Below, in pieces: positions 8,301-37,910 of a stretch of DNA of 64,000 nt. This DNA comes from a virus, in IMG/VR virus record IMGVR_UViG_3300032246_001967, positions 64,325-128,324 of that record; one strand, written 5' to 3'. The translations under genes and the position numbers were made by a program. Below the pieces are notes generated by a model, which worked only from the letters and a program-made list of their open reading frames with translations, was not told where the DNA came from and did no database searches. Every line of letters begins with the position of its first letter. The first letter of the stretch is position 1.

Positions 8301-8778
8301 AAAAACATCAACTCTAGGATATAGAAATAATAATCCTGGTAATATAGTAGGATCAGGAAATGCTGGTTCTGAAACTAAAATTATAACAAGAGGTACAAAA
8401 CCTGAAAAATATACCTACGCGAAATATAAAACTAAAAAAGACGGTTGGGATGCTTTAATAAATAAATTTGTTCAAAGTTGGATTAACCAAGGTAATTTAT
8501 TACCTTATACTGGTTGTACTTTATATCCTGATTGTTTTAAAGATCAAGATAATACTTATTTTAAACAAAATAATATTCCTATAATTGAAGGAACATCATA
8601 TAATTATAAAGCAAAACAAACACCAACATTACGTCAATATATTTATCAATTCTGTCCTCCATCTGCTACTGGAACTGATACAACAAATGGATATATAGCT
8701 AATGTTTATAAAAGTTTAAAAAGTTTTGGATTAGATATTAAATCTATAGATGAACCTATGACTAATTATATAAAATAA
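5356..8778 (+). CDS. Baseplate hub protein with C-terminal lysozyme-like domain
   Basis: 1140 aa; follows the LysM protein; C-terminal EG...RNNNPGNI motif seen in virion muramidases. Confidence 0.6.
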   Translation: MANIIGEVFDEYVKNQINERQFNLGLNLATNDDSLNQWKFNNSAWVRMVSSVDISSEKASELKLSGYEGSKLAKNFILYNGVSSVTGSNDDLYFNPSTNNSEYFINNKDFSIKNSYGFGGLNQGIRPMPGIDSVKVGYINRGFLAQVEIEITAFNREQLYILDALFMHPGYTFLLEWGHTRYIDNNSKEIIHIDPTSLITPAFSKLFQTKNINSYDILNSIKNEREVRSGNYDGQFLVVKKFKYTYQPNGTYKISITGVNQGDIIENLKINTVDAQRASSTRQKALDKQTRDKKIQELTNELNRLNGYFDKNGVINSAGKLAAADAANKIAQELTNTATSEPNLNQPSPNRSLRLYDENQVQSDNLGRNSSAVAKQTQEASIANYVLITETWKKRQLEIDSEIQNLTGENLLADNLVERYAGKSKLNKQLSFWRATCNKEKENLPDGVYGIKTQKYQPPSQNNESSGGGKQYTDYSMYYIRLGSLLNWIKNNLLLYDKTISNPYVNIDTNYNTNFCLHFPKQVSANPNICVIPVKDGNIARKTVNEVSASNSTLPVESSTISSVSNSSDIFYGALPSEFSLVTSPSSSKIIDESFLHSAHVGKLMYIDVNLDFIAATVNDNIDEDGNLSLISFLKELLKGISAALGYINNFEVIYDRENNQIKIFDNNVLKYSDLITKTVQISEFVVNGFENFNLGDSANPQYSLFGSFIESVDFTTELSNNFSNMVTVASQADTNVLGMDVTGFTRFNKGLEDRIIKTKQTIEEINNNGNGLSEEELSKLLTTAKEIVNEIWGLFNISESDIDILMSLNRDIANFYVNKAAKKGTIPSPLVIPFNLSLKMMGISGMRILERFNVDTKILPPMFDNNKYNFIVKAITHEIVNNKWNTILESQVINKDNSGDKDEPISNIQRESFQARINTGKCPSWAPKNGGTPVLLTPNQIILSSLKDSGYITTADFDSFKSSASPAVKFASIIATQEGYGKTSTLGYRNNNPGNIVGSGNAGSETKIITRGTKPEKYTYAKYKTKKDGWDALINKFVQSWINQGNLLPYTGCTLYPDCFKDQDNTYFKQNNIPIIEGTSYNYKAKQTPTLRQYIYQFCPPSATGTDTTNGYIANVYKSLKSFGLDIKSIDEPMTNYIK

Positions 8779-9383
8779 TGTACTTTCCAAAGAATAAAAT
8801 AAAAACAGGATTATATGCTAATAAGGGAGAATTTGTTTATTTAGACAATTTTGTACCTTATAATGGTTTTTACTACTCTTTATATAATGGTAAATTTTTT
8901 GAAGGTAAATCACCAACCAAAAACAATAAAGAAATCATTCCAGCTTCAAAAATAGACCAAAATAATAATATAAGTACTTTAGGTACCGAACAATCATCTC
9001 CAGGATATTCAGAAACAACTAATACCGCGTTTATTATTCCAACAGGTGAAACACAAATTGTACCTGTATTCTATTACCCTCAACCAACAGAACAAGACTA
9101 TCAAACAGGACAATTTCTAAGATACTTTTGTAAAAAAACAAATGAACCTAAATTTTTAGAAATAAATAAAACAGATTATGATAGTTTAACAAATAAAGAT
9201 CCAAAATATGTTTATTCATTGTATCAACCTTTTTATTTATTTTGGTATATAACAGGAACAAATAGAAAAGAAACTGCTACTATAAATAAAAGAGTTACTT
9301 TACGTTATGAAAAACTTTTACAACTGCCTGGTTTAGATAAATTTATAGAATCTATAGGTGGTTATGACAAATTTTATAAATAG
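8778..9383 (+). CDS. Hypothetical (baseplate-associated) protein
   Basis: 201 aa ORF coupled to the hub gene (TAATG). Confidence 0.55.
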   Translation: MYFPKNKIKTGLYANKGEFVYLDNFVPYNGFYYSLYNGKFFEGKSPTKNNKEIIPASKIDQNNNISTLGTEQSSPGYSETTNTAFIIPTGETQIVPVFYYPQPTEQDYQTGQFLRYFCKKTNEPKFLEINKTDYDSLTNKDPKYVYSLYQPFYLFWYITGTNRKETATINKRVTLRYEKLLQLPGLDKFIESIGGYDKFYK

Positions 9384-9431: not shown

Positions 9432-10718
9432 ATGTTTTGGTTAATTGAGAAGGAAGAACACCTAGAATATTTACAACAAAAAATCATCAAAGATGCTTTT
9501 GTTGAAATTATTCCTTACCATGATTATATTCATCCGGTTTTAAATGATGTGTCTCTAGTGTATATTAGACCGTTTAATGACACTAAAGGTTATATGTTAT
9601 GTATTGACCATAGTGAGACTGACTCGCTTAATAAAACGGTTATAGGCGATATACTACAAAGTATAGAGCGTGTGTGGGTGCAAGATAAAAAACAATCATT
9701 GTATTACTTTCCATTAAAATGCTTGCATGACCTATCCATAATCTCTCCTCCGTATATACAAAATACAAAAACACACAATTATTTTTATTCAAAATATCCA
9801 AATTACGAAAAAATCAATAAGCTTGTTCCGGTAAGCAAGCATTATGAAAAATGTGAGCATATTTATAATCACGTTCGTAGTGTTATACCTAAAGAGCTAC
9901 CACCATATTTTGATTTTTATAATAATAAGGTAGCGTTAGCATTTTTTGGAATAGAAAAGAACGGTATTAAAATAAATAAATATGAACTTGATAAACACTA
10001 TGAACTCAATCACGAATTTTATTCAATCAAAGGCGATCGCATTTTCACAAGTTACAATTTGGCTACAACAACACGTAGACCAAGTAACTCTTTTAATGGC
10101 ATTAATTTTGCAGCACTAAACAAAGACAATGGCGCAAGGAGGAGCTTCATATCGAGTCATGGTTTCTTGGAGTACGATATTAGTGCATACCATCCTCATC
10201 TTGTTTCTCGTATGGTTTCCTTTGATTTCGGCGATGATGATGTCCACCAAACGTTTTCCGAACTCTACGGTACGAGTTACCAAGAAGCCAAAGAGATTAC
10301 TTTCCGTCAACTTTATGGAGGAGTACAGGACGACTATAGGGAAATACCCTTTTTTATACAAGTAGAAAAATTTGTAAAAGAAAATTGGGAATCCTTTAAT
10401 AATTCAGGTCAAGTAACAGTCCCAATTTCAGGATATATCTTTGAAAAAGATAAACTGGAAAATATGAACCCACAAAAACTGTTTAACTATATGTTACAGA
10501 ATGTGGAATCAGCAGTTAATGCTTATATATTAATGGATATACATAAGTTGTTACGTGGGAGAAAGACAAAAATTGTACTTTACACTTATGATTCTTTTTT
10601 GTTTGCGCTTGGAGAAGGTGAAGAAGATATTGAACTTGAGATAAATAAAATATTTAAAAAATATAAATTAACAACTAAAACTAAAAAGGGTTATGACTAC
10701 GATTTTGCGAAGAAATAA
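9432..10718 (+). CDS. Divergent family A DNA polymerase-like protein
   Basis: TTTRRPSN (TGRLSS-like), motif A YDISAYHPHL, motif B AKEITFRQLYG, motif C TYDSF. Confidence 0.75.
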   Translation: MFWLIEKEEHLEYLQQKIIKDAFVEIIPYHDYIHPVLNDVSLVYIRPFNDTKGYMLCIDHSETDSLNKTVIGDILQSIERVWVQDKKQSLYYFPLKCLHDLSIISPPYIQNTKTHNYFYSKYPNYEKINKLVPVSKHYEKCEHIYNHVRSVIPKELPPYFDFYNNKVALAFFGIEKNGIKINKYELDKHYELNHEFYSIKGDRIFTSYNLATTTRRPSNSFNGINFAALNKDNGARRSFISSHGFLEYDISAYHPHLVSRMVSFDFGDDDVHQTFSELYGTSYQEAKEITFRQLYGGVQDDYREIPFFIQVEKFVKENWESFNNSGQVTVPISGYIFEKDKLENMNPQKLFNYMLQNVESAVNAYILMDIHKLLRGRKTKIVLYTYDSFLFALGEGEEDIELEINKIFKKYKLTTKTKKGYDYDFAKK

Positions 10719-10752: not shown

Positions 10753-11403
10753 ATGAAAATTTGCTGTGAATGTAAAGTGGAAAAAGATTTAATTTATTTT
10801 AATAAAAATAAAAATCTTAAAGATGGTTTAAACAATAGATGTAAAACTTGTTGTAGTAATAGAAATAAAAATAGATACCAAAATAAAAAAGAAATTATAA
10901 AACAACAAACTAATTTATATTACCATAATAATAAAGAAACAATATCAGAAAAAAACAAAACTAAACCATCATACCATAAAAACAATCCAGAATATTATTC
11001 AGAATATAGAAAAAATAATATTGAAAAACAAAGACAATATTATAAACAATGGAGAGAAAAAAATACTAACATTTATAGATTAAGAATTCAAATTTGGTGG
11101 TGGATACAAAAAAGAGGAATAGAAAAAGAAGCTAAAACAGAAAAAATATTAGGATATAATTTTAAAGAATTTAAAGAAAAAATAGGTGTACCTAAATTTA
11201 ACCAACAGTTAGACCATAAAATTCCTTTAAGTTGGTTTAAAAATGAAACTCCTATAAATATACTTTTTAATTTAGAAAATCTTCATTATATTGATGAAAA
11301 TATAAACAAAACAAAATCAAACTCATATTGTGATAAAGTAAATGATGATTATAAAAAAATTATTATAAAATATATAAAAGATAAATATAAAAATAAGTTA
11401 TGA
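10753..11403 (+). CDS. HNH homing endonuclease
   Basis: N-terminal CxxC...CxxC; C-terminal LDHKIPLS...NL...N..KSN. Confidence 0.75.
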   Translation: MKICCECKVEKDLIYFNKNKNLKDGLNNRCKTCCSNRNKNRYQNKKEIIKQQTNLYYHNNKETISEKNKTKPSYHKNNPEYYSEYRKNNIEKQRQYYKQWREKNTNIYRLRIQIWWWIQKRGIEKEAKTEKILGYNFKEFKEKIGVPKFNQQLDHKIPLSWFKNETPINILFNLENLHYIDENINKTKSNSYCDKVNDDYKKIIIKYIKDKYKNKL

Positions 11404-11873
11404 AAAATATAAATTATGAAGAAACTATTAATATGTATGATGTAGACAATCGATATGATTTCGATATTTATACACATTTAGATATGCTCAACAATAAACT
11501 GTTTTGTACTTTTACAACCTTAGAAGAACTTGATGATTTAGTTAATGGAATAACTAAAGCGTACTCTATTATGTACAATAAGATGTTTGTCTTGTATGTA
11601 AAGAGTACAGATGAGTATGTAGTTACCTATAATGTAGAACAAGGTAACGTTGAGGCGATTCCTGTAAATACTATTTTAGTACATAGAAAAAAAGAAACTA
11701 ATACGCTTTATACTATTAATGCGTTGAATGATCTAATAAAAAAATTAAACGGTGGTGTAGTTGATCCTTCCTACCGTGTGAATTGGCAACATTATAAAAA
11801 CTGTATTTTGTTGACCAACCATAATGAGTTAAAACAATTGAATACAAAAGTATTTAAGATTGTTGAACTTTAG
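11400..11873 (+). CDS. Hypothetical protein next to SSB (likely start 11484)
   Basis: ORF; TATTTATA at 11465 suggests the ATG at 11484. Confidence 0.6.
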   Translation: MKNINYEETINMYDVDNRYDFDIYTHLDMLNNKLFCTFTTLEELDDLVNGITKAYSIMYNKMFVLYVKSTDEYVVTYNVEQGNVEAIPVNTILVHRKKETNTLYTINALNDLIKKLNGGVVDPSYRVNWQHYKNCILLTNHNELKQLNTKVFKIVEL

Positions 11874-11931: not shown

Positions 11932-12771
11932 ATGGACATATCAGCTATTAAACAACGACTAAATGCTTTACAGTCGACTAACAACACAAGCAAGAGAGAA
12001 AAAATTGATTACTCAAAAGTTTACTGGAAACCAAAAGAAGAAGGCAAGTACCAAATTCGTATTGTGCCATCTAAATTGGACCCTAAAAACCCATTTCAGG
12101 AGGTTTTTGTACACTATGGGTTCGGAAAATTTCCTATTTTTGCTTTAACTAACTGGGGTGAAAAAGACCCAATCGTAGAATTTGCTTCTCAATTGAGAAA
12201 AACTAATGACAAAGAAAATTGGTCATTGGCTAAAAAATTGGACCCAAAATTGAGGGTTTATGCTCCTGTTATTGTTAGAGGTGAAGAAGAAAAAGGTGTT
12301 CGCCTTTGGGAATTTGGTAAAGAAATTTACTTGCAACTTCTAGGTATCGCTGAGGATGAAGATTATGGTGATTACACAGACATCAATGAAGGTAGAGACT
12401 TTACAGTAGACGCTGTTAAAGGTGATGTAGGTGGTCGTCAAGGAATCAAATGCTCAATCAGAATTAAACCTAAAACAACTGCTTTGAGTGCTGACGCTTC
12501 TCAAGTTCAAAAATTTCTTTCAGAACAACCAAGTATTTTAGAAATTCAAAGAAAAATGGATTTTGATGCTTTGAAAGAAGTATTGCAAAATTGGTTGTCA
12601 CCTGAAGATGCTGGTGATGATGTTGAAGAAGTAGAAGATGAGGTAATTGAAGCTCAAGCTCCAACAAAAGCTTATGCTTTGAAAACACCTATGGCTCCTA
12701 AAGCCAACAAAGCAGATCAATTCGATTCATTGTTTATTGATGAAGACGAAGACAACGATCTACCTTTCTAA
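11932..12771 (+). CDS. ssb: Single-stranded DNA-binding protein (gp32-like)
   Basis: YWKP...IRIVP, acidic tail ending DEDEDNDLPF; adjacent to the recombinase. Confidence 0.8.
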   Translation: MDISAIKQRLNALQSTNNTSKREKIDYSKVYWKPKEEGKYQIRIVPSKLDPKNPFQEVFVHYGFGKFPIFALTNWGEKDPIVEFASQLRKTNDKENWSLAKKLDPKLRVYAPVIVRGEEEKGVRLWEFGKEIYLQLLGIAEDEDYGDYTDINEGRDFTVDAVKGDVGGRQGIKCSIRIKPKTTALSADASQVQKFLSEQPSILEIQRKMDFDALKEVLQNWLSPEDAGDDVEEVEDEVIEAQAPTKAYALKTPMAPKANKADQFDSLFIDEDEDNDLPF

Positions 12772-12790: not shown

Positions 12791-13885
12791 ATGCCAAGAC
12801 CTAAAAAAAGCGAATCGCTAACGGAAGCCGTATCCGCGGAAATTAAATCTAATTTCAGCCTTGATAAATTCAAGGAAAAGAAATTGCTAAATGGAACAGT
12901 TAAGTTCAAAGAACAAAGATGGATTCCATTCTCAAAAGCTCTACAAGATTCAATTTCTGTAGCCGGTGCTCCAATGGGTCACATTACTTTATTAAGAGGA
13001 CACAGTAATACAGGTAAGACTACAGCATTACTTGAGTTAGCAATTAGCGCTCAAAAAATGAATATCTTACCTGTATTCATTATTACAGAAATGAAATGGT
13101 CATGGGAACACGCTCGTACAATGGGTTTCCAACTTGATGATGTAGTTGATGAAACTACAGGAGAAGTAGTTGACCATACTGGGTTCTTTATTTATCGTGA
13201 TAGGACAACATTGGGTACTATCGAGGATGTAGCTGATTTTGTTTTAGATTTGCTAGACGAACAGAAAAAAGGTAATTTACCTTACGATTTATGCTTCTTC
13301 TGGGATTCAATTGGTTCAATACCATGTAAAATGAGTGTTGAAGCTAATAAAAACAATCCTATGTGGAATGCAGGCGCTATGTCACAACAATTTGGAAATT
13401 TTGTTAACCAACGTTTCCCATTGTCTAGAAAAGAAAATTCACCATACACCAACACAATGGTAGCTATTAATAAAATCTGGGTTGCTCCAGCTGAAAATAT
13501 TATGGCTCAACCTAAAATGAAGATGAAAAATGGTGAAACTATGTTTTTGGATGCTTCAATTGTATTAACTTTTGGTAATATTACTAATAGTGGTACAAGT
13601 AAAATTAAAGCAACTAAAGACGGTAAAGAAGTAGAATTTGCTGTAAGAACGAAAGTATCATGTGATAAAAATCACGTAACAGGACTACAAACTAAAAGTA
13701 CAGTTGTAGCAACTATTCATGGTTTTATTTCAGATGATAAAAAAGACATCGATACTTACAAGAAAGCACATTCTAGTGAGTGGAAAAACATCTTAGGAGA
13801 TGGTAGCTTTGATATTATTGAAGATACCTCAGATTGGGATGAATCATCAAAAGATATTCCTTTGAATTTGATTGATGAAGAATAA
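12791..13885 (+). CDS. recA: RecA/UvsX-like recombinase
   Basis: Walker A GHSNTGKTT, Walker B FFWDS. Confidence 0.85.
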   Translation: MPRPKKSESLTEAVSAEIKSNFSLDKFKEKKLLNGTVKFKEQRWIPFSKALQDSISVAGAPMGHITLLRGHSNTGKTTALLELAISAQKMNILPVFIITEMKWSWEHARTMGFQLDDVVDETTGEVVDHTGFFIYRDRTTLGTIEDVADFVLDLLDEQKKGNLPYDLCFFWDSIGSIPCKMSVEANKNNPMWNAGAMSQQFGNFVNQRFPLSRKENSPYTNTMVAINKIWVAPAENIMAQPKMKMKNGETMFLDASIVLTFGNITNSGTSKIKATKDGKEVEFAVRTKVSCDKNHVTGLQTKSTVVATIHGFISDDKKDIDTYKKAHSSEWKNILGDGSFDIIEDTSDWDESSKDIPLNLIDEE

Positions 13886-13924
13886 GCTTGGCCTATTCGA
13901 AAAAATTTGTTATATTTGAATAAC

Positions 13925-14962
13925 ATGAAGAAAAATGATCTATTAAACCTTCTAGGTAAGGTAACCAAAGAAGAAGAAATAATCACAAACCCATATGAGC
14001 GTGTATTGCTTATTGATGGTTTGAATTTATTTTTTAGAAACTTTGCAATGATGAAAATGGTTAACCAAGACGGTGCTCATATTGGTGGCCTAGGAGGTTT
14101 TTTAAGATCGTTAAATTATCTAATTAACCAACTTCAACCAACTTCAGTCTATGTTGTGTTTGATGGTGCTGGTTCATCTACTAATCGGAAAAATTTATTG
14201 TCTGAATATAAATCAGGTAGAAATTTAGTTAGGATTACTAATTGGGATATTTTTGATTCGTTAGAAGAAGAACATGATTCTAAAATTAACCAAACAGTTA
14301 GATTAATTCATTATCTAAAATGTTTGCCTGTTAAAACAATTAGTATGAATAAGGTAGAAGCCGATGATATTATCGCCTATCTAAGTAATACATTGTCTAA
14401 TAAACATGATTCTAAGGTTTTCATAGTATCTAACGACCAAGACTTTATTCAATTAGTAAACGATAAAATAACAGTATATAGACCAGCTGAAAAAGAATTT
14501 TACACTAAAGATATGGTTAAAAATAACTATGGTGTATTATCTGAAAATTTTATTCTATATAAAACATTATTAGGAGATCAATCAGATAAAGTAGGAGGTA
14601 TTAAAGGTTTAGGTAAAAAAGGTATTATTAAAAAATTCCCTGAATTGCTTGAACGTCCTTTAACTTTTGATGAACTAATGGATATAGCAGAGGCTAAACT
14701 TAAAGAGCATGTTATTTACGCTAGAATACTCCAAGATGAAGATAGACTGAAGAATAATTTCAAAATTATGGATTTAGGTAAACCACTTGTTGATGAAGTT
14801 GAAAAACAATATATAGAAGAGTTTACACAAGAATCCGCTCCAGCTTTGAATACCAAAGCATTTATGTTACTTTATAATGAAGATGGGTTAGGTAGACTAA
14901 TGAAAGACCCAGAATTAACAATTAACAACACATTTAAAGTATTAAACAGTTTTAAAAAATAA
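13925..14962 (+). CDS. 5'-3' exonuclease / flap endonuclease
   Basis: LLIDGLN, VVFDG, EADDIIA, SNDQDF, GDQSD motifs; ATG at 13925 follows a promoter. Confidence 0.9.
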   Translation: MKKNDLLNLLGKVTKEEEIITNPYERVLLIDGLNLFFRNFAMMKMVNQDGAHIGGLGGFLRSLNYLINQLQPTSVYVVFDGAGSSTNRKNLLSEYKSGRNLVRITNWDIFDSLEEEHDSKINQTVRLIHYLKCLPVKTISMNKVEADDIIAYLSNTLSNKHDSKVFIVSNDQDFIQLVNDKITVYRPAEKEFYTKDMVKNNYGVLSENFILYKTLLGDQSDKVGGIKGLGKKGIIKKFPELLERPLTFDELMDIAEAKLKEHVIYARILQDEDRLKNNFKIMDLGKPLVDEVEKQYIEEFTQESAPALNTKAFMLLYNEDGLGRLMKDPELTINNTFKVLNSFKK

Positions 14963-14999: not shown

Positions 15000-15713
15000 A
15001 TGAATTATCAAAAAATTTATGATCAAATAACAGAAAGAGCTAAAATAAGAAAATTAGAAGGTTACAAAGAAAAACATCATATTATACCAAAATGTTTAGG
15101 TGGTTCAAATGATAAAGAAAATTTAGTTGAATTAACAGCTAGAGAACATTTTTTATGTCATAAATTGCTTTGCAAAATTTATCCTAATGAAACTAAATTA
15201 TGGTATGCTTTATGGTTAATGGCTATTGGAAAAAATAGACAAAGTAATCTTTCATCTTACAAAATTTCTAGTAGAAGTTATGAGCAAACTAAATTAGAGT
15301 TTATTGAAAAAATAAAAGGTAGAAAAATGTCTTTAAAAACTAAAGAAAAAATAAAAAACACTAAACATAATATAGATATGTCTGATTTTTATACTCCAGA
15401 AGTAAGAAAAAAGATGTCTGAAACTAAAAAAGGTAAAAAAATTCATACCGATGAATCTAAACAAAAAATAAGTAAATCTAAAAAAGGAAAAACTAGAAAT
15501 ATTATGTGGGGAAATAAAATAAGTGAGTCTAAAAAAGGTAAATCTAAAAAAGGTAAATCTATAATTCAAATAGATCCTGTAACTAAAGAAGTTATAAATA
15601 TTTTTTCTTCTATTAATGAAGCAATACAAAAAACAGGAATAAAAAGTATTTCTAGTAATTTAATAGGAAAAACAAAAACTTCAGGGGGCTATATTTGGCA
15701 ATATAAAAAATAA
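15000..15713 (+). CDS. HNH homing endonuclease with NUMOD repeats
   Basis: EKHHIIPKCLGG...NLVELTAREHFLCH; NUMOD3-like repeats; C-terminal GGYIW. Confidence 0.85.
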   Translation: MNYQKIYDQITERAKIRKLEGYKEKHHIIPKCLGGSNDKENLVELTAREHFLCHKLLCKIYPNETKLWYALWLMAIGKNRQSNLSSYKISSRSYEQTKLEFIEKIKGRKMSLKTKEKIKNTKHNIDMSDFYTPEVRKKMSETKKGKKIHTDESKQKISKSKKGKTRNIMWGNKISESKKGKSKKGKSIIQIDPVTKEVINIFSSINEAIQKTGIKSISSNLIGKTKTSGGYIWQYKK

Positions 15714-15736: not shown

Positions 15737-17098
15737 ATGACACTCAATTCATTAAATGCCTACGGGCCATCATTTCAAATAAAAGTAATATCTGCTTTAT
15801 TAACTCATAAAGAATTCTTACTTAATATACAAGACGTATTGAGTGAAGAATATTTTGATAATAATGCTCAAAAATGGATTATTAAAGAAATTTTAAAATA
15901 TTATCAAAAATATCATTGTACTGTTTCAATGGATGTTCTTAAAGTAGAACTGAAAAAAATTGATAATGAGGTGTTACAAGTTTCTATTAAAGAACAATTA
16001 AGAGAAGCATATAAAGCCTCAGACGAAGATTTAAAGTATGTTGAGGAAGAATTTTCTGGTTTTTGTAAAAACCAACAGTTGAAAAAAGCACTATTAACAA
16101 GTGTAGATTTCTTAAATGCGGGTGATTATGACTCAATTAGATTTATGATTGACAGTGCTTTAAAAGCAGGTGGTGATAAAAATATGGGTCATGAATATAA
16201 TAAAGATGTTGAATCAAGATATAGAGAAGATCACAGAACAGTTGTACCTACTCCTTGGATTGAATTTAATGAATTGTTACAAGGTGGTTTAGGTAATGGT
16301 GATTTTGGATTAATATTTGGTAATCCAGGTGGTGGTAAATCTTGGTCATTAGTTGCTTTAGGTGGACACGCTGTTAAATTAGGTTACAATGTACTGCATT
16401 ATACTCTAGAATTAGGTTCAGATTATGTAGGACGAAGATATGACGCCTTTTTTACAGGTGTAGGAGTTCAAAATATTACTAAACATCAAGCTCAAGTTGA
16501 AGAAGTAGTTGAACAATTACCAGGACAATTGATTATTAAAGAATATCCAACAGGTAAAGCATCTATTTCAACTATTGAATCGCATGTTAAAAAATGTATG
16601 GACTTAGATTTCAAACCAGATTTGATTATTATTGACTATGTAGATCTTCTTCGCTCAAAAAGAAATAATCGTGAGCGTAAGGACGAAATAGATGATATTT
16701 ATATTAGCACTAAGGGACTTGCTAGAGAATTAAACTTACCTATTTGGAGTGTATCTCAAGTAAACAGAGCAGGTGCAAAAGATGACATTATTGAAGGTGA
16801 TAAAGCTGCTGGTAGCTATGATAAAATGATGGTTACTGATGTAGCAATATCCTTATCAAGAAAACGTCAAGATAAAGTAAATGGGACAGGAAGATTTCAT
16901 ATTATGAAAAACAGATACGGAATGGACGGTATGACATTCTCGGTTAAAGCTGACACATCTAATGGTCACTTTGAAGTCTCTGCCCAACTTGAGGACGATG
17001 AAGATTCTACTCCTGCTCAAAGTAATAGTTTTGGTAACATTGATGCTGTAGATAAAGCCCTTATTAAACAAAGATTTTTCGAACTACAAACAAATTAA
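15737..17098 (+). CDS. dnaB: Replicative DNA helicase (DnaB/gp41 family)
   Basis: GNPGGGKS, IIIDYVD, SQVNR, KNRYG motifs. Confidence 0.9.
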   Translation: MTLNSLNAYGPSFQIKVISALLTHKEFLLNIQDVLSEEYFDNNAQKWIIKEILKYYQKYHCTVSMDVLKVELKKIDNEVLQVSIKEQLREAYKASDEDLKYVEEEFSGFCKNQQLKKALLTSVDFLNAGDYDSIRFMIDSALKAGGDKNMGHEYNKDVESRYREDHRTVVPTPWIEFNELLQGGLGNGDFGLIFGNPGGGKSWSLVALGGHAVKLGYNVLHYTLELGSDYVGRRYDAFFTGVGVQNITKHQAQVEEVVEQLPGQLIIKEYPTGKASISTIESHVKKCMDLDFKPDLIIIDYVDLLRSKRNNRERKDEIDDIYISTKGLARELNLPIWSVSQVNRAGAKDDIIEGDKAAGSYDKMMVTDVAISLSRKRQDKVNGTGRFHIMKNRYGMDGMTFSVKADTSNGHFEVSAQLEDDEDSTPAQSNSFGNIDAVDKALIKQRFFELQTN

Positions 17099-17114: not shown

Positions 17115-18971
17115 ATGTTAACCACAGAATCACAAATTTTGTCTGAGATCACTACTCACCTTAAATATGCCAAATTCGTTCCTGAAAAGCATAGACGGGA
17201 AACATGGGATGAGTTAGTTACAAGAAACAAAGAAATGCACTTAGCAAAGTTTCCCTTACTGGCTGAAGAAATTGAAGCCGCGTACAAGTATGTTTATGAT
17301 AAGAAAGTATTACCATCAATGCGTTCAATGCAGTTTGCTGGTAAGCCTATTGAAATAAACAACGCTCGTATTTTTAACTGTTCTTATTTACCAATTGATG
17401 ATTATAGAGCATTTTCTGAAATCATGTTCTTATTACTTTCAGGTTGTGGAGTAGGATATTCAGTTCAAACTCATCATGTTGAAAAATTACCTGAGATTAG
17501 AAAACCACTTAAATCAAAACGTTATTTAGTAGGTGATTCTATTGAAGGATGGGCTGATGCAGTTAGAATGTTAACTAAAGCTTATTTTGGTTTTACATCA
17601 ACTGCTCCATTATTTGATTTTAGAGATATTAGAGCAAAAGGGGCTTCATTAATCACTGTGGGAGGTAAAGCACCCGGTCCAGAACCATTAAAAATTGCTT
17701 TGATTCATATGCAAGCGATTTTAGACCGTAAACAAGATGGTGAGAGATTAACAACAGTTGAATGTCATGATATTATTTGCCATTTAGCAGATGCTGTTTT
17801 ATCCGGAGGAATTCGTAGAGCTGCTCTTATTGCGTTATTTAATTTACATGATGAAAATATGTTGACTTGTAAATTTGGAAATTGGTGGGAAGATAATCCA
17901 CAAAGAGGTAGAGCAAATAACTCAGCAGTATTACTTCGTAATAAAATTGACAAAGACACATTTTTAAATCTTTGGAAGAAAATTGAAGCATCTAATAGTG
18001 GTGAACCAGGCTTCTTATTTACAAATGATAAAGATGCAGGAACTAATCCATGTGCTGAAATTAATTTGAAAGCTAATCAATTCTGTAACTTATGTGAAAT
18101 CAATGCTTCAGATATTGAAACACAAGAAGAATATAATGCGAGAGCTAAAGCAGCAGCATTTATCGGTACATTACAAGCTTCATATACTGATTTCCATTAT
18201 TTGAGAGACATTTGGAGAAAAACAACTGAAAAAGAAGCATTATTAGGTATTGGAATGACAGGTATCGCTTCAGGCGCTGTATTTAAATTAAACATGAAGG
18301 AAGCAGCTAAAGTAGCAGTAGCAGAAAACGAAAGAGTAGCAGCTATTTTAGGTATTAATAAAGCAGCTCGTGTTACAACAGTTAAACCATCAGGAACTAC
18401 TTCATTAGTGTTAGGTACTAGTTCAGGTATTCACGCTTGGCATGATGATTTCTATTTACGTAGAATCCGTTTAGGTAAAAATGAAGCATTATATACTTAC
18501 CTAAGTGTGTATCATCCTGAAATGTTAGAAGATGATTTCTTTAAACCAACATTACAATCTATTGTTGCTGTTCCTCAACGTGCTCCAGAAGGTGCTATTA
18601 CTCGTAAAGAATCAGCTATGGATTTATTAGAGCGTATTAAAACCATTAATAAAGAATGGATTAAACCAGGACATAGAAAAGGAGCTAATATGCATAACGT
18701 ATCTGCTACAGTAACTATTAAACATGATGAATGGGATATGGTAGGAGATTGGTTATATGAAAATAAAGAGTATTTTACTGCGTTATCTTTCTTACCATTT
18801 GATGGACACACTTATAAACAAGCCCCTTATGAAACAATTACTGAAGAGCAATTCAATGAAGCCGTTAAATCACTTCATAAAGTAGATCTTTCTAAAGTAA
18901 TTGAAATGACAGACAACACAGCTTTGATGGACCAACAAGCGTGTATAGGAGGAGCCTGCGAAATAGTGTAA
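17115..18971 (+). CDS. nrdJ: Class II (adenosylcobalamin) ribonucleotide reductase
   Basis: FNCS, TNPCAEI, VKPSGT, C-terminal CIGGACEI; no beta subunit nearby. Confidence 0.85.
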   Translation: MLTTESQILSEITTHLKYAKFVPEKHRRETWDELVTRNKEMHLAKFPLLAEEIEAAYKYVYDKKVLPSMRSMQFAGKPIEINNARIFNCSYLPIDDYRAFSEIMFLLLSGCGVGYSVQTHHVEKLPEIRKPLKSKRYLVGDSIEGWADAVRMLTKAYFGFTSTAPLFDFRDIRAKGASLITVGGKAPGPEPLKIALIHMQAILDRKQDGERLTTVECHDIICHLADAVLSGGIRRAALIALFNLHDENMLTCKFGNWWEDNPQRGRANNSAVLLRNKIDKDTFLNLWKKIEASNSGEPGFLFTNDKDAGTNPCAEINLKANQFCNLCEINASDIETQEEYNARAKAAAFIGTLQASYTDFHYLRDIWRKTTEKEALLGIGMTGIASGAVFKLNMKEAAKVAVAENERVAAILGINKAARVTTVKPSGTTSLVLGTSSGIHAWHDDFYLRRIRLGKNEALYTYLSVYHPEMLEDDFFKPTLQSIVAVPQRAPEGAITRKESAMDLLERIKTINKEWIKPGHRKGANMHNVSATVTIKHDEWDMVGDWLYENKEYFTALSFLPFDGHTYKQAPYETITEEQFNEAVKSLHKVDLSKVIEMTDNTALMDQQACIGGACEIV

Positions 18972-19003
18972 AAAAAACGCTTGATTTAAAATCCAACGCC
19001 TTT

Positions 19004-19039: not shown

Positions 19040-19041
19040 TT

Positions 19042-23792: not shown

Positions 23793-24230
23793 ATGGAACC
23801 ACATACATTTACAACTACAGGAACATCAAACACGGCCATTGGCTATGAACAAACAGGGTACAGCGGTATAGTGACAACCGGAAACAGTAACCTTGATTAC
23901 GGAACTATTACCAACTTTAAAACCTCAGGAACAACATACACAACTGAAGGCCTTAACATACAACCCTTTACTTTTTCCCACCCAGTTGGGGGTACAACAT
24001 TAACAGTAAACAATACAACAAATAATAGAATTATGCAAAACAAAGTAGCAATTTTTAAAGTAACAAGAGACGAAGACGAAAAAATCATTAAGACCGAATT
24101 TTTAAAAGAAATGTGGGTAGAAACTAAAAACGGACAAACAGTAGATTTTCAAGTAGCTAGAGACAAAGATTTAGCTGGTTATGAAATGTCTGATTTAATT
24201 ATTAAAACTATCTTTTCATTAACATTCTAA
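23793..24230 (+). CDS. Hypothetical protein with Thr-rich N-terminus
   Basis: ATG at 23793 after the 23741 promoter; alternative start at 24033. Confidence 0.5.
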   Translation: MEPHTFTTTGTSNTAIGYEQTGYSGIVTTGNSNLDYGTITNFKTSGTTYTTEGLNIQPFTFSHPVGGTTLTVNNTTNNRIMQNKVAIFKVTRDEDEKIIKTEFLKEMWVETKNGQTVDFQVARDKDLAGYEMSDLIIKTIFSLTF

Positions 24231-25117
24231 TGAAGAAACAAGCAGTATTATCATTGAGTGGAGGTATGGATTCTTCCACTCTACTGCTTCATCTACTTGC
24301 CAATGGCTATGAAGTAACAGCATTATCTTTTGACTATGGTCAAAAACACTCTATTGAATTGGAGCGTGCTAAAGAATTAGTTAATTATTTAAATCAAACC
24401 AGATATCAAAATAATAGAGCCCCAGGTCCTTTACAGGGGAGTAAAGAAGATTACTCACCAATTAAATATCAAGTAATTAAACTTGATGGTTTAAGCCAAT
24501 TGCTCAATTCAGCACTTGTAACAGGCGGAGATGAAGTTCCTGAAGGACATTATGCTGAAGAAAATATGAAAGCAACTGTTGTTCCTAATAGGAATAAAAT
24601 CTTTAGTTCAATTATTCAAGCAGTAGCTTTATCAATTGCTGAATCTAAAAATACAGATGTTCACATCGCAATGGGTATTCATGCTGGTGATCATAGTATT
24701 TATCCTGATTGTAGACAAGAATTTAGAGACATTGATTATGAAGCTTTTAAAGTAGGTAATTGGGGTGCTGAAAAAGTAGCTTATTATACTCCTTATTTAT
24801 TAGGTGATAAATTCGATATTTTAAAAGATGGAGAGAAATGTTGTGAGACATTAGGACTTGATTTTGATGAAATTTATAGACGTACAAACACATCTTATAA
24901 ACCAATGGTTCATATTGTTTTTGATAATTACGATAATCCATCACCAGAATGGTTTAGTGATTATAAATCAGCAAGTTCAGTAGAACGTGTAGAAGCATTT
25001 ATGAAATTAGGTAGAAAAGATCCTGTACCTTATGCTGACGAATTTGGACCAGTAACTTGGGATTTCGTAAAAGAATACGTATCTTCAGTATTAGATGAGC
25101 ATTCGAAGACAATATAG
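24230..25117 (+). CDS. queC: 7-cyano-7-deazaguanine synthase
   Basis: SLSGGMDS, FDYGQKH, TVVPNRN, YPDCR motifs. Confidence 0.92.
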   Translation: MKKQAVLSLSGGMDSSTLLLHLLANGYEVTALSFDYGQKHSIELERAKELVNYLNQTRYQNNRAPGPLQGSKEDYSPIKYQVIKLDGLSQLLNSALVTGGDEVPEGHYAEENMKATVVPNRNKIFSSIIQAVALSIAESKNTDVHIAMGIHAGDHSIYPDCRQEFRDIDYEAFKVGNWGAEKVAYYTPYLLGDKFDILKDGEKCCETLGLDFDEIYRRTNTSYKPMVHIVFDNYDNPSPEWFSDYKSASSVERVEAFMKLGRKDPVPYADEFGPVTWDFVKEYVSSVLDEHSKTI

Positions 25118-25462: not shown

Positions 25463-25499
25463 GATTGGTGTGTTCCTTGATTTTGTAATATTTATAAAC

Positions 25500-26098: not shown

Positions 26099-26344
26099 AT
26101 GAAAAAATTATTTTATTTTACTAGTTTAGGATGTGTTCCTTGCCAAACGTTTAGTCCAATAATGGAGCAAATATCGGCTTTAATACCTGTAGAAAAAGTT
26201 ATTACAGATTATGAAATGAGTAAAGCAATATCAGCAAATGTAAGATCAGTTCCTACTGTAATACTTGTAGAAAATGAACAAGAAGTTAGAAGATTTACAG
26301 GAGCAAAAAGTTATCAAGACGTAATGAATTTTATTAATGGGTAA
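26099..26344 (+). CDS. Thioredoxin
   Basis: CVPC active site; VRSVPT. Confidence 0.8.
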   Translation: MKKLFYFTSLGCVPCQTFSPIMEQISALIPVEKVITDYEMSKAISANVRSVPTVILVENEQEVRRFTGAKSYQDVMNFING

Positions 26345-26810
26345 GTATCAATCAACAAAATTATTTGATAACTACTCAGTAGCAATTAGACAGTGGAAAG
26401 CTCAACATTCACACTGTCAGTTGTTGCATGGGTATGCTTTAAAATTTAAAGTATGGTTTGAATCAGTAGAACCACTAGAAGAAAATCAGTTAGACGAGAT
26501 GAACTGGATTCAGGATTATGGTGGGTTTAAATCAGCACCTCAAGGTAATGGTTTAAAAGACTGGATGGATTATATGTGGGACCATACTTTATTAATTGAA
26601 AAAGATGATCCGTATTTAGATTTATTCGAGTCGATGAATCCAACAGTATGCCATTTAAGAGTAATGGATAAGATTGGAGCTGAAAGTGCTGCTAAATTAG
26701 TTTTTGATAAATTCAATGATGTTTTATCAAAACAAGGTGGTGGACGTGTTAAAGTAACAAAAGTAGAATGTTGGGAAGCTGACAAAAACAGTTCAATTTA
26801 TCAAGAGTAA
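26337..26810 (+). CDS. queD: 6-carboxytetrahydropterin synthase
   Basis: HCQLLHGY, DYGG, WDH, ECWE motifs. Confidence 0.88.
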   Translation: MGKYQSTKLFDNYSVAIRQWKAQHSHCQLLHGYALKFKVWFESVEPLEENQLDEMNWIQDYGGFKSAPQGNGLKDWMDYMWDHTLLIEKDDPYLDLFESMNPTVCHLRVMDKIGAESAAKLVFDKFNDVLSKQGGGRVKVTKVECWEADKNSSIYQE

Positions 26811-27601
26811 TGACAACAGAAATTAAAAAACCAGGTCGTATTACCGATTATAGTAAAAAATTACCTATCCTTGAAATTTATACCTGTGTTCAATCAGAAG
26901 GTTCAAGACAGGGTAGACCTACAGTAGCAATTAGAACCACAGGATGTACTCATAGATGTTGGTTTGGTGAAGGTGGATGGTGTGATAGTTGGTATACAAG
27001 TATTCATCCTGAAAAAGGTATTTATACTTTCAACGACATTGTTAAGATTTATGATGAGAATCCACATATTAGAGAGATGATGTTAACAGGTGGTTCACCA
27101 ACAATGCAACCTGATTTAGTTAATGAACTAACTCACTTTGCTTATCAACGTGGTATATTTATTACTATTGAAACGGAGGGTTCCCATTATGTTGAAACAG
27201 ATTATCCTATTGGTCTTATCTCTTTGTCTCCTAAGTTCTCTAATAGTGTGCCTCGTATTGATGTCACCACTCCTCTTGGTAAGTTGGTTGACCAAAAAAT
27301 GATTGACCAGCATAACAAGCTTAGATTAAATAGAGAAGCAATTAGACAAATGTTAGATTATCATGCTGACTACCATTACAAGCCAGTTTGGGACGGCACA
27401 GCTGAATGCTTGGCTGAGATTGAAGAATTCAGACAGGAAATGGATATTCCAAAATGGAAAACCTGGTTGATGCCTGCAGGCGATACTAGAGAGACTTTAA
27501 TTGAGATGTATCCAAAATCCATTGAGTTATGTATGGAGATGGGTTATTGTTGGACAGGTAGAGATCATATCATAGCATATGATCAAAAACGTGCCGTCTG
27601 A
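26810..27601 (+). CDS. queE: 7-carboxy-7-deazaguanine synthase (radical SAM)
   Basis: QSEG, RTTGCTHRC...WCDS, LTGG, IETEG, SLSPK. Confidence 0.9.
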   Translation: MTTEIKKPGRITDYSKKLPILEIYTCVQSEGSRQGRPTVAIRTTGCTHRCWFGEGGWCDSWYTSIHPEKGIYTFNDIVKIYDENPHIREMMLTGGSPTMQPDLVNELTHFAYQRGIFITIETEGSHYVETDYPIGLISLSPKFSNSVPRIDVTTPLGKLVDQKMIDQHNKLRLNREAIRQMLDYHADYHYKPVWDGTAECLAEIEEFRQEMDIPKWKTWLMPAGDTRETLIEMYPKSIELCMEMGYCWTGRDHIIAYDQKRAV

Positions 27602-28793: not shown

Positions 28794-29293
28794 TAACTTT
28801 ATTTACAGAAAGAGAAATTAAAAACAAAGTGGGTGAACTTGCCCACAACATTAAAAAAGTTCAACATGAACAACCACCTGTTTTTATTTGTGTTTTAAAC
28901 GGCGCATTTATGTTTTTCACAGATTTAGTGAAACAAGTAGGTGAGTGCCATATAGACTTTATACAGGCAAAATCTTACGAAGGAACGTCACAGGGCGAAA
29001 TTCGTATTTTAAAATCAATAGATATTAATATTGAAGGTAAAGATGTTTATTTAGTAGATGATATCTATGATTCAGGTAATACTATGAATAGATTGATTAA
29101 ACATCTAAATTACCAAAAACCAAAATCAATCACTCCAGTAACTTTATTTAAAAAACATTATTCAAACAATCCAAATTTGATGTATGGTTTTGAATTGAAA
29201 AATGAACATTGGTTAGTAGGATATGGTTTAGATGCGGTTGACGGAACTAAAAGAAACCTTTCACATATACTTGGTTATTTACCTGAAGATTGA
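28790..29293 (+). CDS. hpt: Purine (hypoxanthine/guanine) phosphoribosyltransferase
   Basis: VLNGAFMF, KSY, VYLVDDIYDSGNT, LVGYGLD. Confidence 0.85.
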   Translation: MITLFTEREIKNKVGELAHNIKKVQHEQPPVFICVLNGAFMFFTDLVKQVGECHIDFIQAKSYEGTSQGEIRILKSIDINIEGKDVYLVDDIYDSGNTMNRLIKHLNYQKPKSITPVTLFKKHYSNNPNLMYGFELKNEHWLVGYGLDAVDGTKRNLSHILGYLPED

Positions 29294-29309
29294 TATATTA
29301 AAAAAAGTT

Positions 29310-29999
29310 ATGGATAATAAAACATTTAAATTAGATTTAGAAGTAGTTAAACAAGGATATGCAAATGGAGTTGCTCCTAATTTTCCTTTGACTGAAGAAG
29401 AAAAGTGGGCAATGGTTGATAAAGCAACTGAAGCTTATGGACAGTTTTTAGATGCTTTAGGTTGTGATTGGAGAAACGATCCTAATTCACAAGACACTCC
29501 TCGTAGAGTAGCTAAAGCATATGTGTTTGACTTATGGAAAGGTAGATATGAATCAATGTCTGATATTACAGCTTTCCCATCAGATGGTTATGATGGTATT
29601 GTAATTGAAAGAAATATTCCACTCACATCAATGTGTTCACATCACCACCAAACAATTGGAGGTGTAGTTCATATTGGTTATGTAGTAGGTGAAGGTGGTT
29701 CAGTAATTGGTTTAAGTAAATTAAATCGTATTGTAGAACATTTTGGTCGTAGAGGTGCTATCCAAGAACAATTAACATCAGCAATTCATCAAGCAGTAGA
29801 TAAAATTACTGAAGGTAATCGTGGTGTTATTGTAACTGTAGTTGCCACTCACAACTGTGTAAGTTGTAGAGGTGTTAAACATCAAGGTGCTTCAATGGTT
29901 ACTACAAAAGCATCAGGTGTGTTTTTAGATAATGCTAATTTGTCACGTCAAGAATTTTTTGACAGTATTAAAATTAACAACGGAGGACATCAGATATAA
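29310..29999 (+). CDS. folE: GTP cyclohydrolase I
   Basis: TPRRVAK, SMCSHH, GLSKLNR, QEQLT, HNCVSCRG. Confidence 0.93.
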   Translation: MDNKTFKLDLEVVKQGYANGVAPNFPLTEEEKWAMVDKATEAYGQFLDALGCDWRNDPNSQDTPRRVAKAYVFDLWKGRYESMSDITAFPSDGYDGIVIERNIPLTSMCSHHHQTIGGVVHIGYVVGEGGSVIGLSKLNRIVEHFGRRGAIQEQLTSAIHQAVDKITEGNRGVIVTVVATHNCVSCRGVKHQGASMVTTKASGVFLDNANLSRQEFFDSIKINNGGHQI

Positions 30000-33326: not shown

Positions 33327-34067
33327 ATGATAAATAAATTAGACTTAGTAAGTATTATTTCAAAGTATTACCTAAACGGAATGAATGAAGCCGTTAAATG
33401 GGAAATCAAAGATAATAACTTAACAATTAAATTTACCTCTCCAGATAGATCAATGATTGGAGTTGTAACTTATGAAGGATTTGAATTAGAAGATTCAAAT
33501 GTTGGTATCAGTAATACTACTCAATTAAATAAACTATTAGCTATTACAAATGGTTATTTAAATTTAGAATATCATAAACAACATAAAATGATTACTAAAC
33601 TTATTGTAGCTGATAATCAATTCACTCTTAATTATGCTTTAGCTGATACTATGATTATTCCTAAAGCAGGTGAATATATTGGTGATGGTCAATATAATAT
33701 TGAAGCTACATTAGATAACGAAAGTATAAACGCTATAGTTAAAGCCAAATCAGCACTCGCAGATACTGATACAGTTGTATTTAAGCCGTTTATAAACGCT
33801 GATAATGAGTTACAATTAGAAATGTTGTTTGGAGGTAATATTGAACACTCAAATAAAGTATCATTTTATCTTCCAAATATTGAAACTAACAATTTACCTA
33901 AAGATTTTAAAGCACACTACAATTCTAATTTAATTAAAGAGATTATGTATTGTAATAAAGATGTTCCTAATGGTGTGATGGGGATTAATTTAGACGGTGT
34001 TATGAGGTTGTTTTTTGATAGTGGTAAACTTAAAAGTGAGTATTATTTAGTCGCTAAAGAACTTTAA
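33327..34067 (+). CDS. Sliding clamp (gp45-like)
   Basis: 246 aa directly after polB; ends SEYYLV; clamp loader downstream. Confidence 0.65.
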   Translation: MINKLDLVSIISKYYLNGMNEAVKWEIKDNNLTIKFTSPDRSMIGVVTYEGFELEDSNVGISNTTQLNKLLAITNGYLNLEYHKQHKMITKLIVADNQFTLNYALADTMIIPKAGEYIGDGQYNIEATLDNESINAIVKAKSALADTDTVVFKPFINADNELQLEMLFGGNIEHSNKVSFYLPNIETNNLPKDFKAHYNSNLIKEIMYCNKDVPNGVMGINLDGVMRLFFDSGKLKSEYYLVAKEL

Positions 34068-36728: not shown

Positions 36729-36985
36729 GTAAAACAGAAATTCAAGAAAAATTAATTGAAATTGCGATACGTAAGGCACCTGGTGATAATTGGAAAGTAC
36801 ATGGTACTGAAGTAATCCAACATTCATTAACTGATGCTTTAGAAGCTTGGTTCCAATTAGCTACAATTAAACCTAAAGCATTCAGACTAGATTTGGCTTC
36901 AGGTAGACTTTATGCTATATTAACTGAGGAAGTTGAAATCCCAAAACCAGAAGTAAAACGTTATAACATATATGGTGACTACTAA
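36725..36985 (+). CDS. Hypothetical protein
   Basis: 86 aa ORF, ATGA overlap. Confidence 0.55.
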   Translation: MSKTEIQEKLIEIAIRKAPGDNWKVHGTEVIQHSLTDALEAWFQLATIKPKAFRLDLASGRLYAILTEEVEIPKPEVKRYNIYGDY

Positions 36986-37910
36986 AGAACATACTATTTT
37001 CGTAGAAAAATACAGACCTAAAACACTTGACACTTATATCTGTGATGAACAGATTCGTGAAAAAATTCAAGAGTTTATCACTAATCAAGATATTCCTCAT
37101 TTAGGATTTTTTGGATTACAAGGTTCTGGTAAATCTACTTTAGCAAAAATATTAGTTAATAATATTGATTGTGATTTTATCTATCTAAACGCTACTGAAA
37201 ATAGAGGTATGGATGATATTAAAGAAAAAGTAGGTTCGTTTGCTTCAACTCGTAGTTTCAAACCATTAAAGATTGTTATTCTAGATGAATCAACTCATAT
37301 TCTTCAAGCATCACAAGTATTGCTTTTGAATATGATTGAAACTAATAGTTTAACTACTCGTTTTATTCTTACAGGTAACTATCCTGAAAGGTTAATTCCA
37401 CCATTGAGAAGTCGTTTACAAGAATTCAAATTAACTCCTCCATCTAAAAAAATAGTAGCAAAACATGTTTATGAAATTTTAAATAAAGAGGAAGTAGAAT
37501 TTAATATTGAAGATTTAGCCTCTATAGTAAATAGTTCATATCCTGATTTTAGAAAGATTATTAATGATTGTCAAAAATATATTGTAGACAATAAATTAGT
37601 AATTCCTAAAACATTAGGTAAAAATGAAGATGTTCAAAGTAAAATATTAGATGCTTTAAAAAAACCATCTAATAAAACGTTTAATGAAATTAGACAGATT
37701 ATCGCAGATAATGATTTATCTTCGTTTGAAGACGTTTTTAAACACTTATATGAACATATTAATGAGTATGCTGTTGGGTGTGAGGGACAAATAGCAATCA
37801 TCATAAATGAATGCCTATATCAAGCTAATTTTAGAGTTGATTTAGAAATTAACTTCATGTCTGGTATTTCTAAAATAATTGAAGTAATTAAAACTAATAA
37901 AATATTATAA
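36972..37910 (+). CDS. Clamp loader ATPase subunit (RFC/gp44-like)
   Basis: EKYRPK, GLQGSGKS, ILDES, LRSR. Confidence 0.9.
   Translation: MVTTKEHTIFVEKYRPKTLDTYICDEQIREKIQEFITNQDIPHLGFFGLQGSGKSTLAKILVNNIDCDFIYLNATENRGMDDIKEKVGSFASTRSFKPLKIVILDESTHILQASQVLLLNMIETNSLTTRFILTGNYPERLIPPLRSRLQEFKLTPPSKKIVAKHVYEILNKEEVEFNIEDLASIVNSSYPDFRKIINDCQKYIVDNKLVIPKTLGKNEDVQSKILDALKKPSNKTFNEIRQIIADNDLSSFEDVFKHLYEHINEYAVGCEGQIAIIINECLYQANFRVDLEINFMSGISKIIEVIKTNKIL

Follow-up and report, generated by a model that had tools for sequence, protein, structure and literature searches.

The 64,000-nt stretch of viral DNA analysed here (positions 64,325 to 128,324 of IMG/VR virus record IMGVR_UViG_3300032246_001967, hereafter the window) encodes a compact 428-aa protein whose family profile and structural model show it to be, by homology and predicted fold, a family A DNA polymerase with the palm and fingers of Pol I. 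The gene, located at the head of a set of replication and recombination genes, belongs to divPolA1, a family named by Yutin, Tolstoy, Mutz, Wolf, Krupovic and Koonin (bioRxiv 2024; Virol J 2024;21:200, PMC11348598). As its probable role we favour short-patch DNA synthesis from existing primers, and not the synthesis of RNA primers that had been proposed in an initial annotation of the window. The window corresponds to the second half (64325-128324) of a single viral contig of 128,324 bp with an estimated completeness of 78%; its GC content is ~28% and the + strand holds all 62 open reading frames (ORFs) of at least 100 aa. The positions of the genes discussed are collected in Table 1.

The PolA nature of the protein is visible only by family profile and structure, not by single-sequence search. 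Searches with the 428-aa protein alone gave no Pfam, PHROG or PDB sequence match, and the Pfam PolA model PF00476 found no match anywhere in the record at E ≤ 1, so that its gathering score was not reached. A HMMER profile of 88 family members, on the other hand, matched the Klenow fragment at E 3.1e-9; its matches in PDB at E ≤ 10 comprised 58 sequences, every one of them a family A DNA polymerase. Alignment of the family profile with E. coli Pol I by hhalign had a probability of 95.9% over 227 columns. The AlphaFold2 model of the protein reached a pLDDT of 95.8 and a pTM of 0.92. Using this model, Foldseek retrieved 240 PDB chains at E ≤ 0.001, Pol I-type enzymes first (best E 2e-17), with a TMq of up to 0.73, for Klenow. 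For eleven family A DNA polymerases, VIA, a structure search independent of Foldseek, aligned 370-416 residues at Z 19.7-23.5. In that search Klenow scored Z 22.7 with a root-mean-square deviation of 3.6 over 414 residues, both the exonuclease and the polymerase domains being covered, and Pol theta and Pol nu were also among the structural matches. The profile match to Klenow, the confident model and the presence of a PolB gene elsewhere in the window bear out the annotation of a compact, second family A polymerase.

The nearest cultured phage is Flavobacterium phage vB_FspM_immuto, whose homologue gp001 is annotated 'DNA polymerase family A' and shares 34.5% identity with the window protein over 91% of the query (tblastn E 7e-75; blastp E 4e-87). 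Unlike the window protein, the immuto copy does give a PF00476 signal, of 43.9 summed bits. The order of the operon genes after the polymerase is the same in the window and in immuto. As described in the main text of PMC11348598, divPolA1 is the second polymerase of large marine and freshwater phages and occurs in 14 of them; it keeps the catalytic residues of the palm, while its thumb is truncated and its exonuclease domain inactivated, and replication genes are conserved downstream of it. According to the same text, these phages also encode a regular A, B or C polymerase, which has chaperonins and genes for the metabolism or modification of nucleotides as neighbours; its surroundings vary and are less clearly those of a replication gene. 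Because of the homology to immuto gp001, the shared operon order and the agreement with this description on every point, the window gene is a member of divPolA1; the family, the truncated thumb, the dead exonuclease and the genomic context are already published. The main text of PMC11348598 is silent on processivity, Okazaki fragments and ribonucleotides, as it is on histidine and a steric gate, and its references to primases belong to other subjects; the residues discussed below may be shown in its figures or supplements. Within the library searched, a full-text search for the name divPolA1 found it in use only in the preprint and the published version of that study. What we add is incremental and consists of the residue signature, the scale of the family, the co-occurrence with primases and the coupling to a neighbouring gene, hyp157.

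In contrast to the 14 phages of the published count, public protein collections hold 4273 divPolA1 clusters at 90% identity (E ≤ 0.001, among 7009 candidates). At 50% identity there are 1014 representatives, nearly all of them of 410-450 aa. The gene is present in at least 581 IMG/VR stretches, and members can be as little as ~30% identical to one another. Fused or longer forms (750-2140 aa) were not found at E ≤ 0.001, a weak piece of evidence.

We mapped active-site residues from the HMMER alignment to Klenow and the hhalign alignment to E. coli Pol I, with the numbering checked on the polA translation, and counted conservation in the 252 full-length members (at least 380 aa) of 271 family sequences. 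Motifs 2, A, B, 6 and C of Pol I align with divPolA1, and the three motifs highlighted in the initial annotation, DISAYH, YQEAK and YDSF, lie at residues 249-254, 283-287 and 386-389 of the protein. In motif A, D249 corresponds to Pol I D705 and H254 to E710, the steric gate, which is also Glu in T7 DNA polymerase (E480). Thus the His that had been placed at the gate is indeed there, and it is a family-wide feature (His in 249 members, Gln in 3). In motif B, Y283, K287, F291 and Y295 correspond to R754, K758, F762 and Y766. The usual Arg is missing from the window protein, as had been noted, and across the family the R754-equivalent position is Tyr in 197 members, Ile in 17, Arg in 11 and Val in 6. 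In motif C, Y386-D387-S388 corresponds to H881-D882-E883, and the position after the Asp is Ser in 214 members, Ala in 35, Gly in 2 and a gap in 1, being acidic in none. The divPolA1 of cyanophage Mel-JY01 reads DYDAFH in motif A and YDAF in motif C. Two further residues, R216 and Q356, correspond to R668 and Q849. Conservation of the catalytic Asp residues was nearly complete (D249 in 252/252, D387 in 251/252), as was that of the O-helix residues (K287 in 251, Y295 in 247 and F291 in 240) and of the DNA-contact residues (R216 in 252, Q356 in 251). One further candidate, A392, had stood out in the 88-sequence alignment as a private loss of a near-invariant Asp. It was dropped, the 252-sequence column containing D in 157, E in 79, Q in 11 and A in 3 members and varying within the query's own clade.

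The N-terminal ~150 residues by themselves matched DEDD exonucleases in VIA (ExnV1 Z 11.1, RNase D Z 10.6, WRN exonuclease Z 9.4). Within this domain, column 62 alone carries an acidic residue in every one of the 252 members, and the columns of the first strand (beta-1) are at most 75% acidic. The four-carboxylate DEDD site is therefore not conserved in divPolA1, and the proofreading site is lost. The hhalign alignment to E. coli Pol I left the exonuclease domain unaligned, and this loss is judged from column acidity, not from residue mapping. The dead domain (window 9432-9881, residues 1-150) has near-invariant polar residues of its own: H34 in 243 of the 252 members, H60 in 249, E/D62 in 252, K87 in 244 and D100 in 235. 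Because these are kept, the domain may retain a function other than that of a DEDD exonuclease, such as binding. With regard to the polymerase domain, residues 558-646 of Pol I (~89 residues), which we take to be the thumb, stand opposite only four profile positions of divPolA1. On this alignment the thumb of the window protein is truncated, in agreement with what has been published for the family.

The genes that follow divPolA1 are all encoded on the same strand with short gaps between them, and Pfam and PHROG matches confirmed the operon of SSB, UvsX/RecA, 5'-3' exonuclease and DnaB that had been read behind the polymerase. For the analysis of synteny we used 80 IMG/VR loci, with divPolA1 identities to the query of 42-83%. 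A locus was counted for a given gene if its flank sufficed, that is, with at least 900, 1900, 3100, 4200 and 5800 bp downstream for hyp157, SSB, UvsX, exonuclease and DnaB, respectively, and at least 800 bp upstream for up201, the gene directly 5' of divPolA1. Results showed that every downstream gene was present in all loci with enough flank: hyp157 in 69/69, SSB in 61/61, UvsX in 57/57, the 5'-3' exonuclease in 47/47 and DnaB in 38/38. The up201 gene, which has no Pfam or PHROG match, preceded divPolA1 in 63 of 65 loci. Mel-JY01 has preserved the entire module, with up201 and hyp157.

When the flank filter was omitted, hyp157 was found in 78 of the 80 loci, the two misses having 0 and 742 bp downstream. 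In 77 of these 78 loci its frame opens close to where the divPolA1 frame ends, at a point from 70 nt ahead of that end to 4 nt past it. The remaining locus, L009, resembles the window in that an endonuclease is inserted between the two genes. L009 is also the only one of the 80 related loci with a homologue of the window endonuclease at that site, and the endonuclease between exonuclease and DnaB has homologues in two of the 80. Because their homologues are so rare, both endonucleases look like recent insertions. The hyp157 alignment has a mean identity of 67% and 37 invariant columns. Between the window and immuto, identity was 59% for hyp157 (gp002 of immuto), 48% for SSB, 59% for UvsX, 39% for the exonuclease, 58% for DnaB and 34% for divPolA1. 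The structural model of hyp157 is confident from residue 30 on, after an N-terminal tail that is predicted to be disordered. Searches with hyp157 gave no Pfam match, no result in the atlas search and no Foldseek match at E ≤ 0.001. Its best VIA match (Z 6.4, residues 28-94) was to generic ferredoxin-like, ACT or RRM folds, and the only VIA rows over residues ~23-156 were the polyomavirus large T antigen structures 4gdf and 1tbd (the second being the origin-binding domain); their Z of 5.1-5.6 does not reach the noise level of the tool. Prediction of a complex between divPolA1 and hyp157 scored 0.00 in two runs without controls, which speaks neither for nor against binding. We regard hyp157 as a candidate accessory factor of divPolA1.

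Concerning the regular polymerase, the window had been described as containing a full PolB, clamp and clamp-loader replisome. The PolB gene and two clamp-loader genes were confirmed, whereas the clamp is a lead only, from an ORF that had no Pfam or PHROG match. In the other divPolA1 records, PolB was present in three of five; immuto lacks PolB and carries a regular PolA in a 778-aa frame. A regular polymerase of the PolC family (PF07733) was found in none of the five relatives, and the published PolC-bearing members were not reproduced. In two relatives, reached via L061 and L079, the PolB match is interrupted. In G002 (95% complete) it is split over two frames of 596 and 301 aa (G002:C1:93355-95419), and in G004 it holds two TAA stops (G004:C1:13147-13848); these could be inserted elements or broken genes. 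Just downstream of the window PolB lies a Cpn60/GroEL chaperonin gene (34919-36529; PF00118, E 4.8e-67). A chaperonin beside the regular polymerase is described in the text of PMC11348598 for all divPolA1 genomes.

The explanation that best accommodates these observations, and that we hold to be probable, is that divPolA1 is an active, primer-dependent, non-proofreading family A DNA polymerase of low processivity. It would extend primers and carry out short-patch synthesis for the replication and recombination module in which it is encoded. One option is gap filling after the separate 5'-3' exonuclease removes primers, as if Pol I had been split into two genes; another is the extension of UvsX/SSB recombination intermediates, and the enzyme might serve in both. 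Bulk synthesis would be left to PolB with its clamp, and primers would come from a Toprim primase encoded upstream of the window. The His at the gate would most likely still exclude ribonucleotides. A specialised gap filler working with the separate exonuclease was one half of the role initially suggested, and judged from the neighbourhood it remains the most plausible one; the other half, a primase, is not supported, as discussed below.

Several points weigh against the proposed role. The gate Glu, R754 and E883 are all important in Klenow, as mutagenesis has established, and divPolA1 has changed the three of them, to His, Tyr and Ser/Ala/Gly, respectively. Because all three are replaced, activity or substrate choice could differ from those of Pol I, and the substitutions may change rate or selectivity. 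Moreover, divPolA1 is the least conserved gene of the operon when the window is compared with immuto (34% vs 39-59%). The choice between gap filling and recombination-linked synthesis is guided by gene neighbourhood.

We also considered that the enzyme could make RNA primers, as a primase, an RNA polymerase or a polymerase that accepts rNTPs; this now appears very unlikely. The idea is consistent with the absence of both the gate Glu and the motif C Glu throughout the family and with the resemblance of YDSF to the HDSF of T7 RNA polymerase (residues 811-814), which is literally true but concerns one tetrapeptide. In addition, T7, mitochondrial and N4 RNA polymerases are found among the VIA matches at Z 8.9-12.9 with ~250 residues aligned, and an RNA polymerase role is entertained for the sister group divPolA2 in the text of PMC11348598. 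However, the structural comparison with Klenow and T7 RNA polymerase, which the initial annotation had put forward as a check, places the family A DNA polymerases far closer, ~10 Z units higher and with ~150 more residues aligned. The family profile gives 37.1 bits for E. coli Pol I and 0.5 bits for T7 DNA polymerase, and no match to T7 RNA polymerase even with hmmsearch --max at E ≤ 1000. The F762-equivalent Phe and the Q849-equivalent Gln are kept as in Pol I. The gate of T7 RNA polymerase is Gly542 (DGSCSG, 537-542), in contrast to the bulky H254 of the window protein. His has been proposed as the presumptive steric gate of Pol III alpha, a strict DNA polymerase (H760; as presented in PMC8485763), which by analogy is a precedent, not a proof, given that it belongs to a different polymerase family. 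As for primases, none of the three families searched is present in the window, as had been stated, but the genome does encode one ~45 kb upstream of it, at record positions 18567-19550 (L003:838-1821). This 327-aa protein combines a CxxC...CxxC zinc ribbon with a Toprim domain (Toprim_2 above cut-off; phrog_47 'DNA primase', E 2.6e-42). The gene, of DnaG/gp61 type, lies far from the helicase gene and has a GIY-YIG-like ORF before it. No AEP (Prim-Pol) match was found, and the 428-aa polymerase itself has no Zn-ribbon, Toprim or AEP Pfam match even at E ≤ 10. The check for primases in other divPolA1 genomes, likewise proposed at the outset, revealed a homologue in four of the five other records, among them the complete immuto genome and the two IMG/VR records with a completeness of 90% or more. 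The single miss is a 57%-complete fragment, and the complete Mel-JY01 genome was positive as well, which gives five of six overall. Because a separate Zn-ribbon/Toprim primase is encoded in its own genome and in five of six others, the idea that divPolA1 is the primase is weakened. It is extremely improbable, on the other hand, that the protein is a replisome subunit without catalytic activity, serving a structural or regulatory purpose. The replacement of R754 and E883, the loss of the exonuclease site and the truncated thumb would suit such a subunit, but 252 sequences retain, with hardly an exception, the catalytic Asp pair, Lys and Tyr of the O helix and the Arg and Gln that contact DNA, which is not expected of a scaffold.

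A rather unlikely alternative assigns divPolA1, possibly together with hyp157, a larger part, as the constant core replicative polymerase of the lineage or as an obligatory hand-off enzyme for the extension of primers from the primase, with regular polymerases of type A, B or C being exchangeable. In its favour, divPolA1 and its replication neighbours are constant while the regular polymerase varies among genomes, in a context that the text of PMC11348598 presents as variable and less obviously replicative, and hyp157 is both invariably coupled to divPolA1 and more conserved than it. Such a part would fit poorly with a truncated thumb, with the lack of proofreading and with the low conservation of divPolA1 within its operon. 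Besides, PolB is accompanied here by a clamp loader and a PCNA-like candidate, and no fusions of divPolA1 to helicase or primase were found, although this last evidence is weak. It is likewise unlikely that divPolA1 is a polymerase for modified DNA or lesion bypass, for example one that copies or incorporates 7-deazaguanine bases. The window does contain a complete pathway for preQ0, the 7-deazaguanine precursor, just upstream of PolB (24230-29999), in a gene group that comprises FolE, QueD, QueE and QueC, then a dCTP-deaminase-like gene, PolB and Cpn60. QueC is present in three of the five divPolA1 records (immuto and both near-complete IMG/VR relatives), and a non-proofreading, open active site is typical of the bypass enzymes Pol theta and Pol nu, both of which are among the structural matches. 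With the Pfam TGT model no DpdA/TGT gene was found in the record, which is 78% complete; a divergent transglycosylase may be present (e.g. the unassigned ORFs 20207-21394 or 22168-22944), or the gene may lie in the missing part. Against this explanation, 7-deaza modifications sit in the major groove and ordinary polymerases copy them. Furthermore, QueC has no match in the complete Mel-JY01 genome, which has divPolA1, hyp157 and the whole module. Because Mel-JY01 has the module without QueC, divPolA1 is not tied to 7-deazaguanine DNA, and the connection that we had drawn between the two was downgraded. Finally, it is conceivable, though improbable, that divPolA1 and the always-adjacent hyp157 form a two-subunit polymerase, constant in the lineage and devoted to one step, e.g. 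the brief extension of primers made by the Toprim primase before the swapped-in A, B or C replicase takes over. If this were true, the His gate, the Ser/Ala of motif C and the Tyr of motif B would have evolved for work at RNA-DNA junctions or for a looser choice of sugar, and the free exchange of the main polymerase in these phages would be explained.

Outside these subjects, the ribonucleotide reductase gene after DnaB (Table 1) has at the same position in immuto the class I genes NrdA and NrdF, and Mel-JY01 encodes a close homologue of the window enzyme (E 1e-273); it looks like the reductase class has been swapped in situ. Five homing-endonuclease-like genes are scattered among the replication and nucleotide-metabolism genes. 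Apart from the two in Table 1, of endonuclease VII/HNH and HNH-NUMOD3 type, these are, in order, an HNH (19003-19638), a GIY-YIG-NUMOD (25470-26081) and a GIY-YIG gene (39818-40549). A long block of sugar or polysaccharide biosynthesis genes, an unusual cargo for a phage, extends from 40797 to 55275 and includes two GT4-type glycosyltransferases, a DegT-type aminotransferase, a TPP-dependent enzyme, a HAD-nucleotidyltransferase fusion and a methyltransferase.

Table 1. Genes of the window discussed in the text, with their positions, strand and supporting matches.
Feature	Position in window	Strand	Matches and remarks
up201	8778..9383	+	201 aa, directly 5' of divPolA1; conserved, no known family
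divPolA1	9432..10718	+	428 aa; residues 1-~150, DEDD-fold domain without catalytic carboxylates; ~151-428, palm and fingers, truncated thumb
Endonuclease VII/HNH-like homing endonuclease	10753..11403	+	phrog_2340 and phrog_1035, E ~3e-8; between divPolA1 and hyp157
hyp157	11400..11873	+	157 aa, no known family; candidate accessory factor
gp32-like SSB	11932..12771	+	PF08804, 1.3e-12
UvsX/RecA-like recombinase	12791..13885	+	phrog_97, 6.4e-19
Stand-alone 5'-3' exonuclease (FEN/RNase H type)	13907..14962	+	PF02739, 3.7e-35
HNH/NUMOD3 homing endonuclease	15000..15713	+	phrog_655, 6.2e-50; between exonuclease and helicase
DnaB-like replicative helicase	15737..17098	+	phrog_19, 4.2e-77; PF03796, 2.6e-18
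Ribonucleotide reductase	17115..18971	+	3' of DnaB; matches class II (B12-dependent) insertion domain
QueC	24230..25117	+	preQ0 pathway
QueD/PTPS	26337..26810	+	preQ0 pathway
Radical-SAM QueE	26810..27601	+	preQ0 pathway
GTP cyclohydrolase I (FolE)	29232..29999	+	preQ0 pathway
Family B DNA polymerase with exonuclease domain	30730..33324	+	PF00136, 2.4e-34; PF03104, 4.7e-19
Possible PCNA-like sliding clamp (lead only)	33327..34067	+	atlas match 0.95, 201/256 features, to a cluster with PCNA_N in 63% of members
Clamp-loader AAA+ subunit (gp44-like)	36972..37910	+	PF00004, 1.6e-13; DNA_pol3_delta2, Gp44_lid
Small clamp-loader subunit	38141..38560	+	phrog_225 'clamp loader of DNA polymerase', 2.1e-18

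The divPolA1 family is abundant; its phages infect Flavobacteria and Cyanobacteria, and it accompanies main replicases of every kind. Its role would show how labour is divided between the polymerases of large phages, and perhaps why the main polymerase can be swapped. In addition, a naturally minimal PolA with a His sugar gate would be of interest for enzyme engineering.

When compared with divPolA1 as published, the window gene shares the homology, the downstream operon, the regular polymerase beside a chaperonin, the truncated thumb, the dead exonuclease and the kept palm residues; it differs from the immuto copy in lying, at only 34% identity, below any Pfam PolA signal. The divPolA2 enzymes of barbaviruses are, in the account of PMC11348598, also second, divergent PolAs that accompany a regular PolB, lack a working exonuclease and have an unusual thumb. 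They have, however, variable neighbourhoods and an unrelated N-terminal domain and may be RNA polymerases, whereas divPolA1 has a fixed replication module and a DEDD-fold domain. The 'broken-thumb' APEX and CHEAP PolAs, as described by Czernecki et al. (NAR 2023, PMC10201439), are similarly auxiliary, do not replace the main polymerase and have altered thumbs, and APEX has, like divPolA1, an inactive exonuclease pocket; but they are cellular (bacterial) enzymes, here compared with divPolA1 by description. With T7-like RNA polymerases, divPolA1 has in common the palm and fingers core (T7 RNA polymerase Z 11.5, 250 residues) and the Ser-Phe after the motif C Asp. It differs from them in the lack of sequence-profile similarity, in the His gate in place of Gly and in an N-terminal domain that is a DEDD-fold remnant and not a promoter-binding domain. 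Finally, divPolA1 departs from Pol I in its length (428 residues vs 605), in having no counterpart of residues 558-646, in the DEDD carboxylates, which are not conserved, and in the replacement of the gate Glu by His, of R754 by Tyr and of E883 by Ser. Both have in common the fold of the exonuclease and polymerase domains, and divPolA1 has a 5'-3' exonuclease in the same operon, so that the two genes together resemble a split Pol I.

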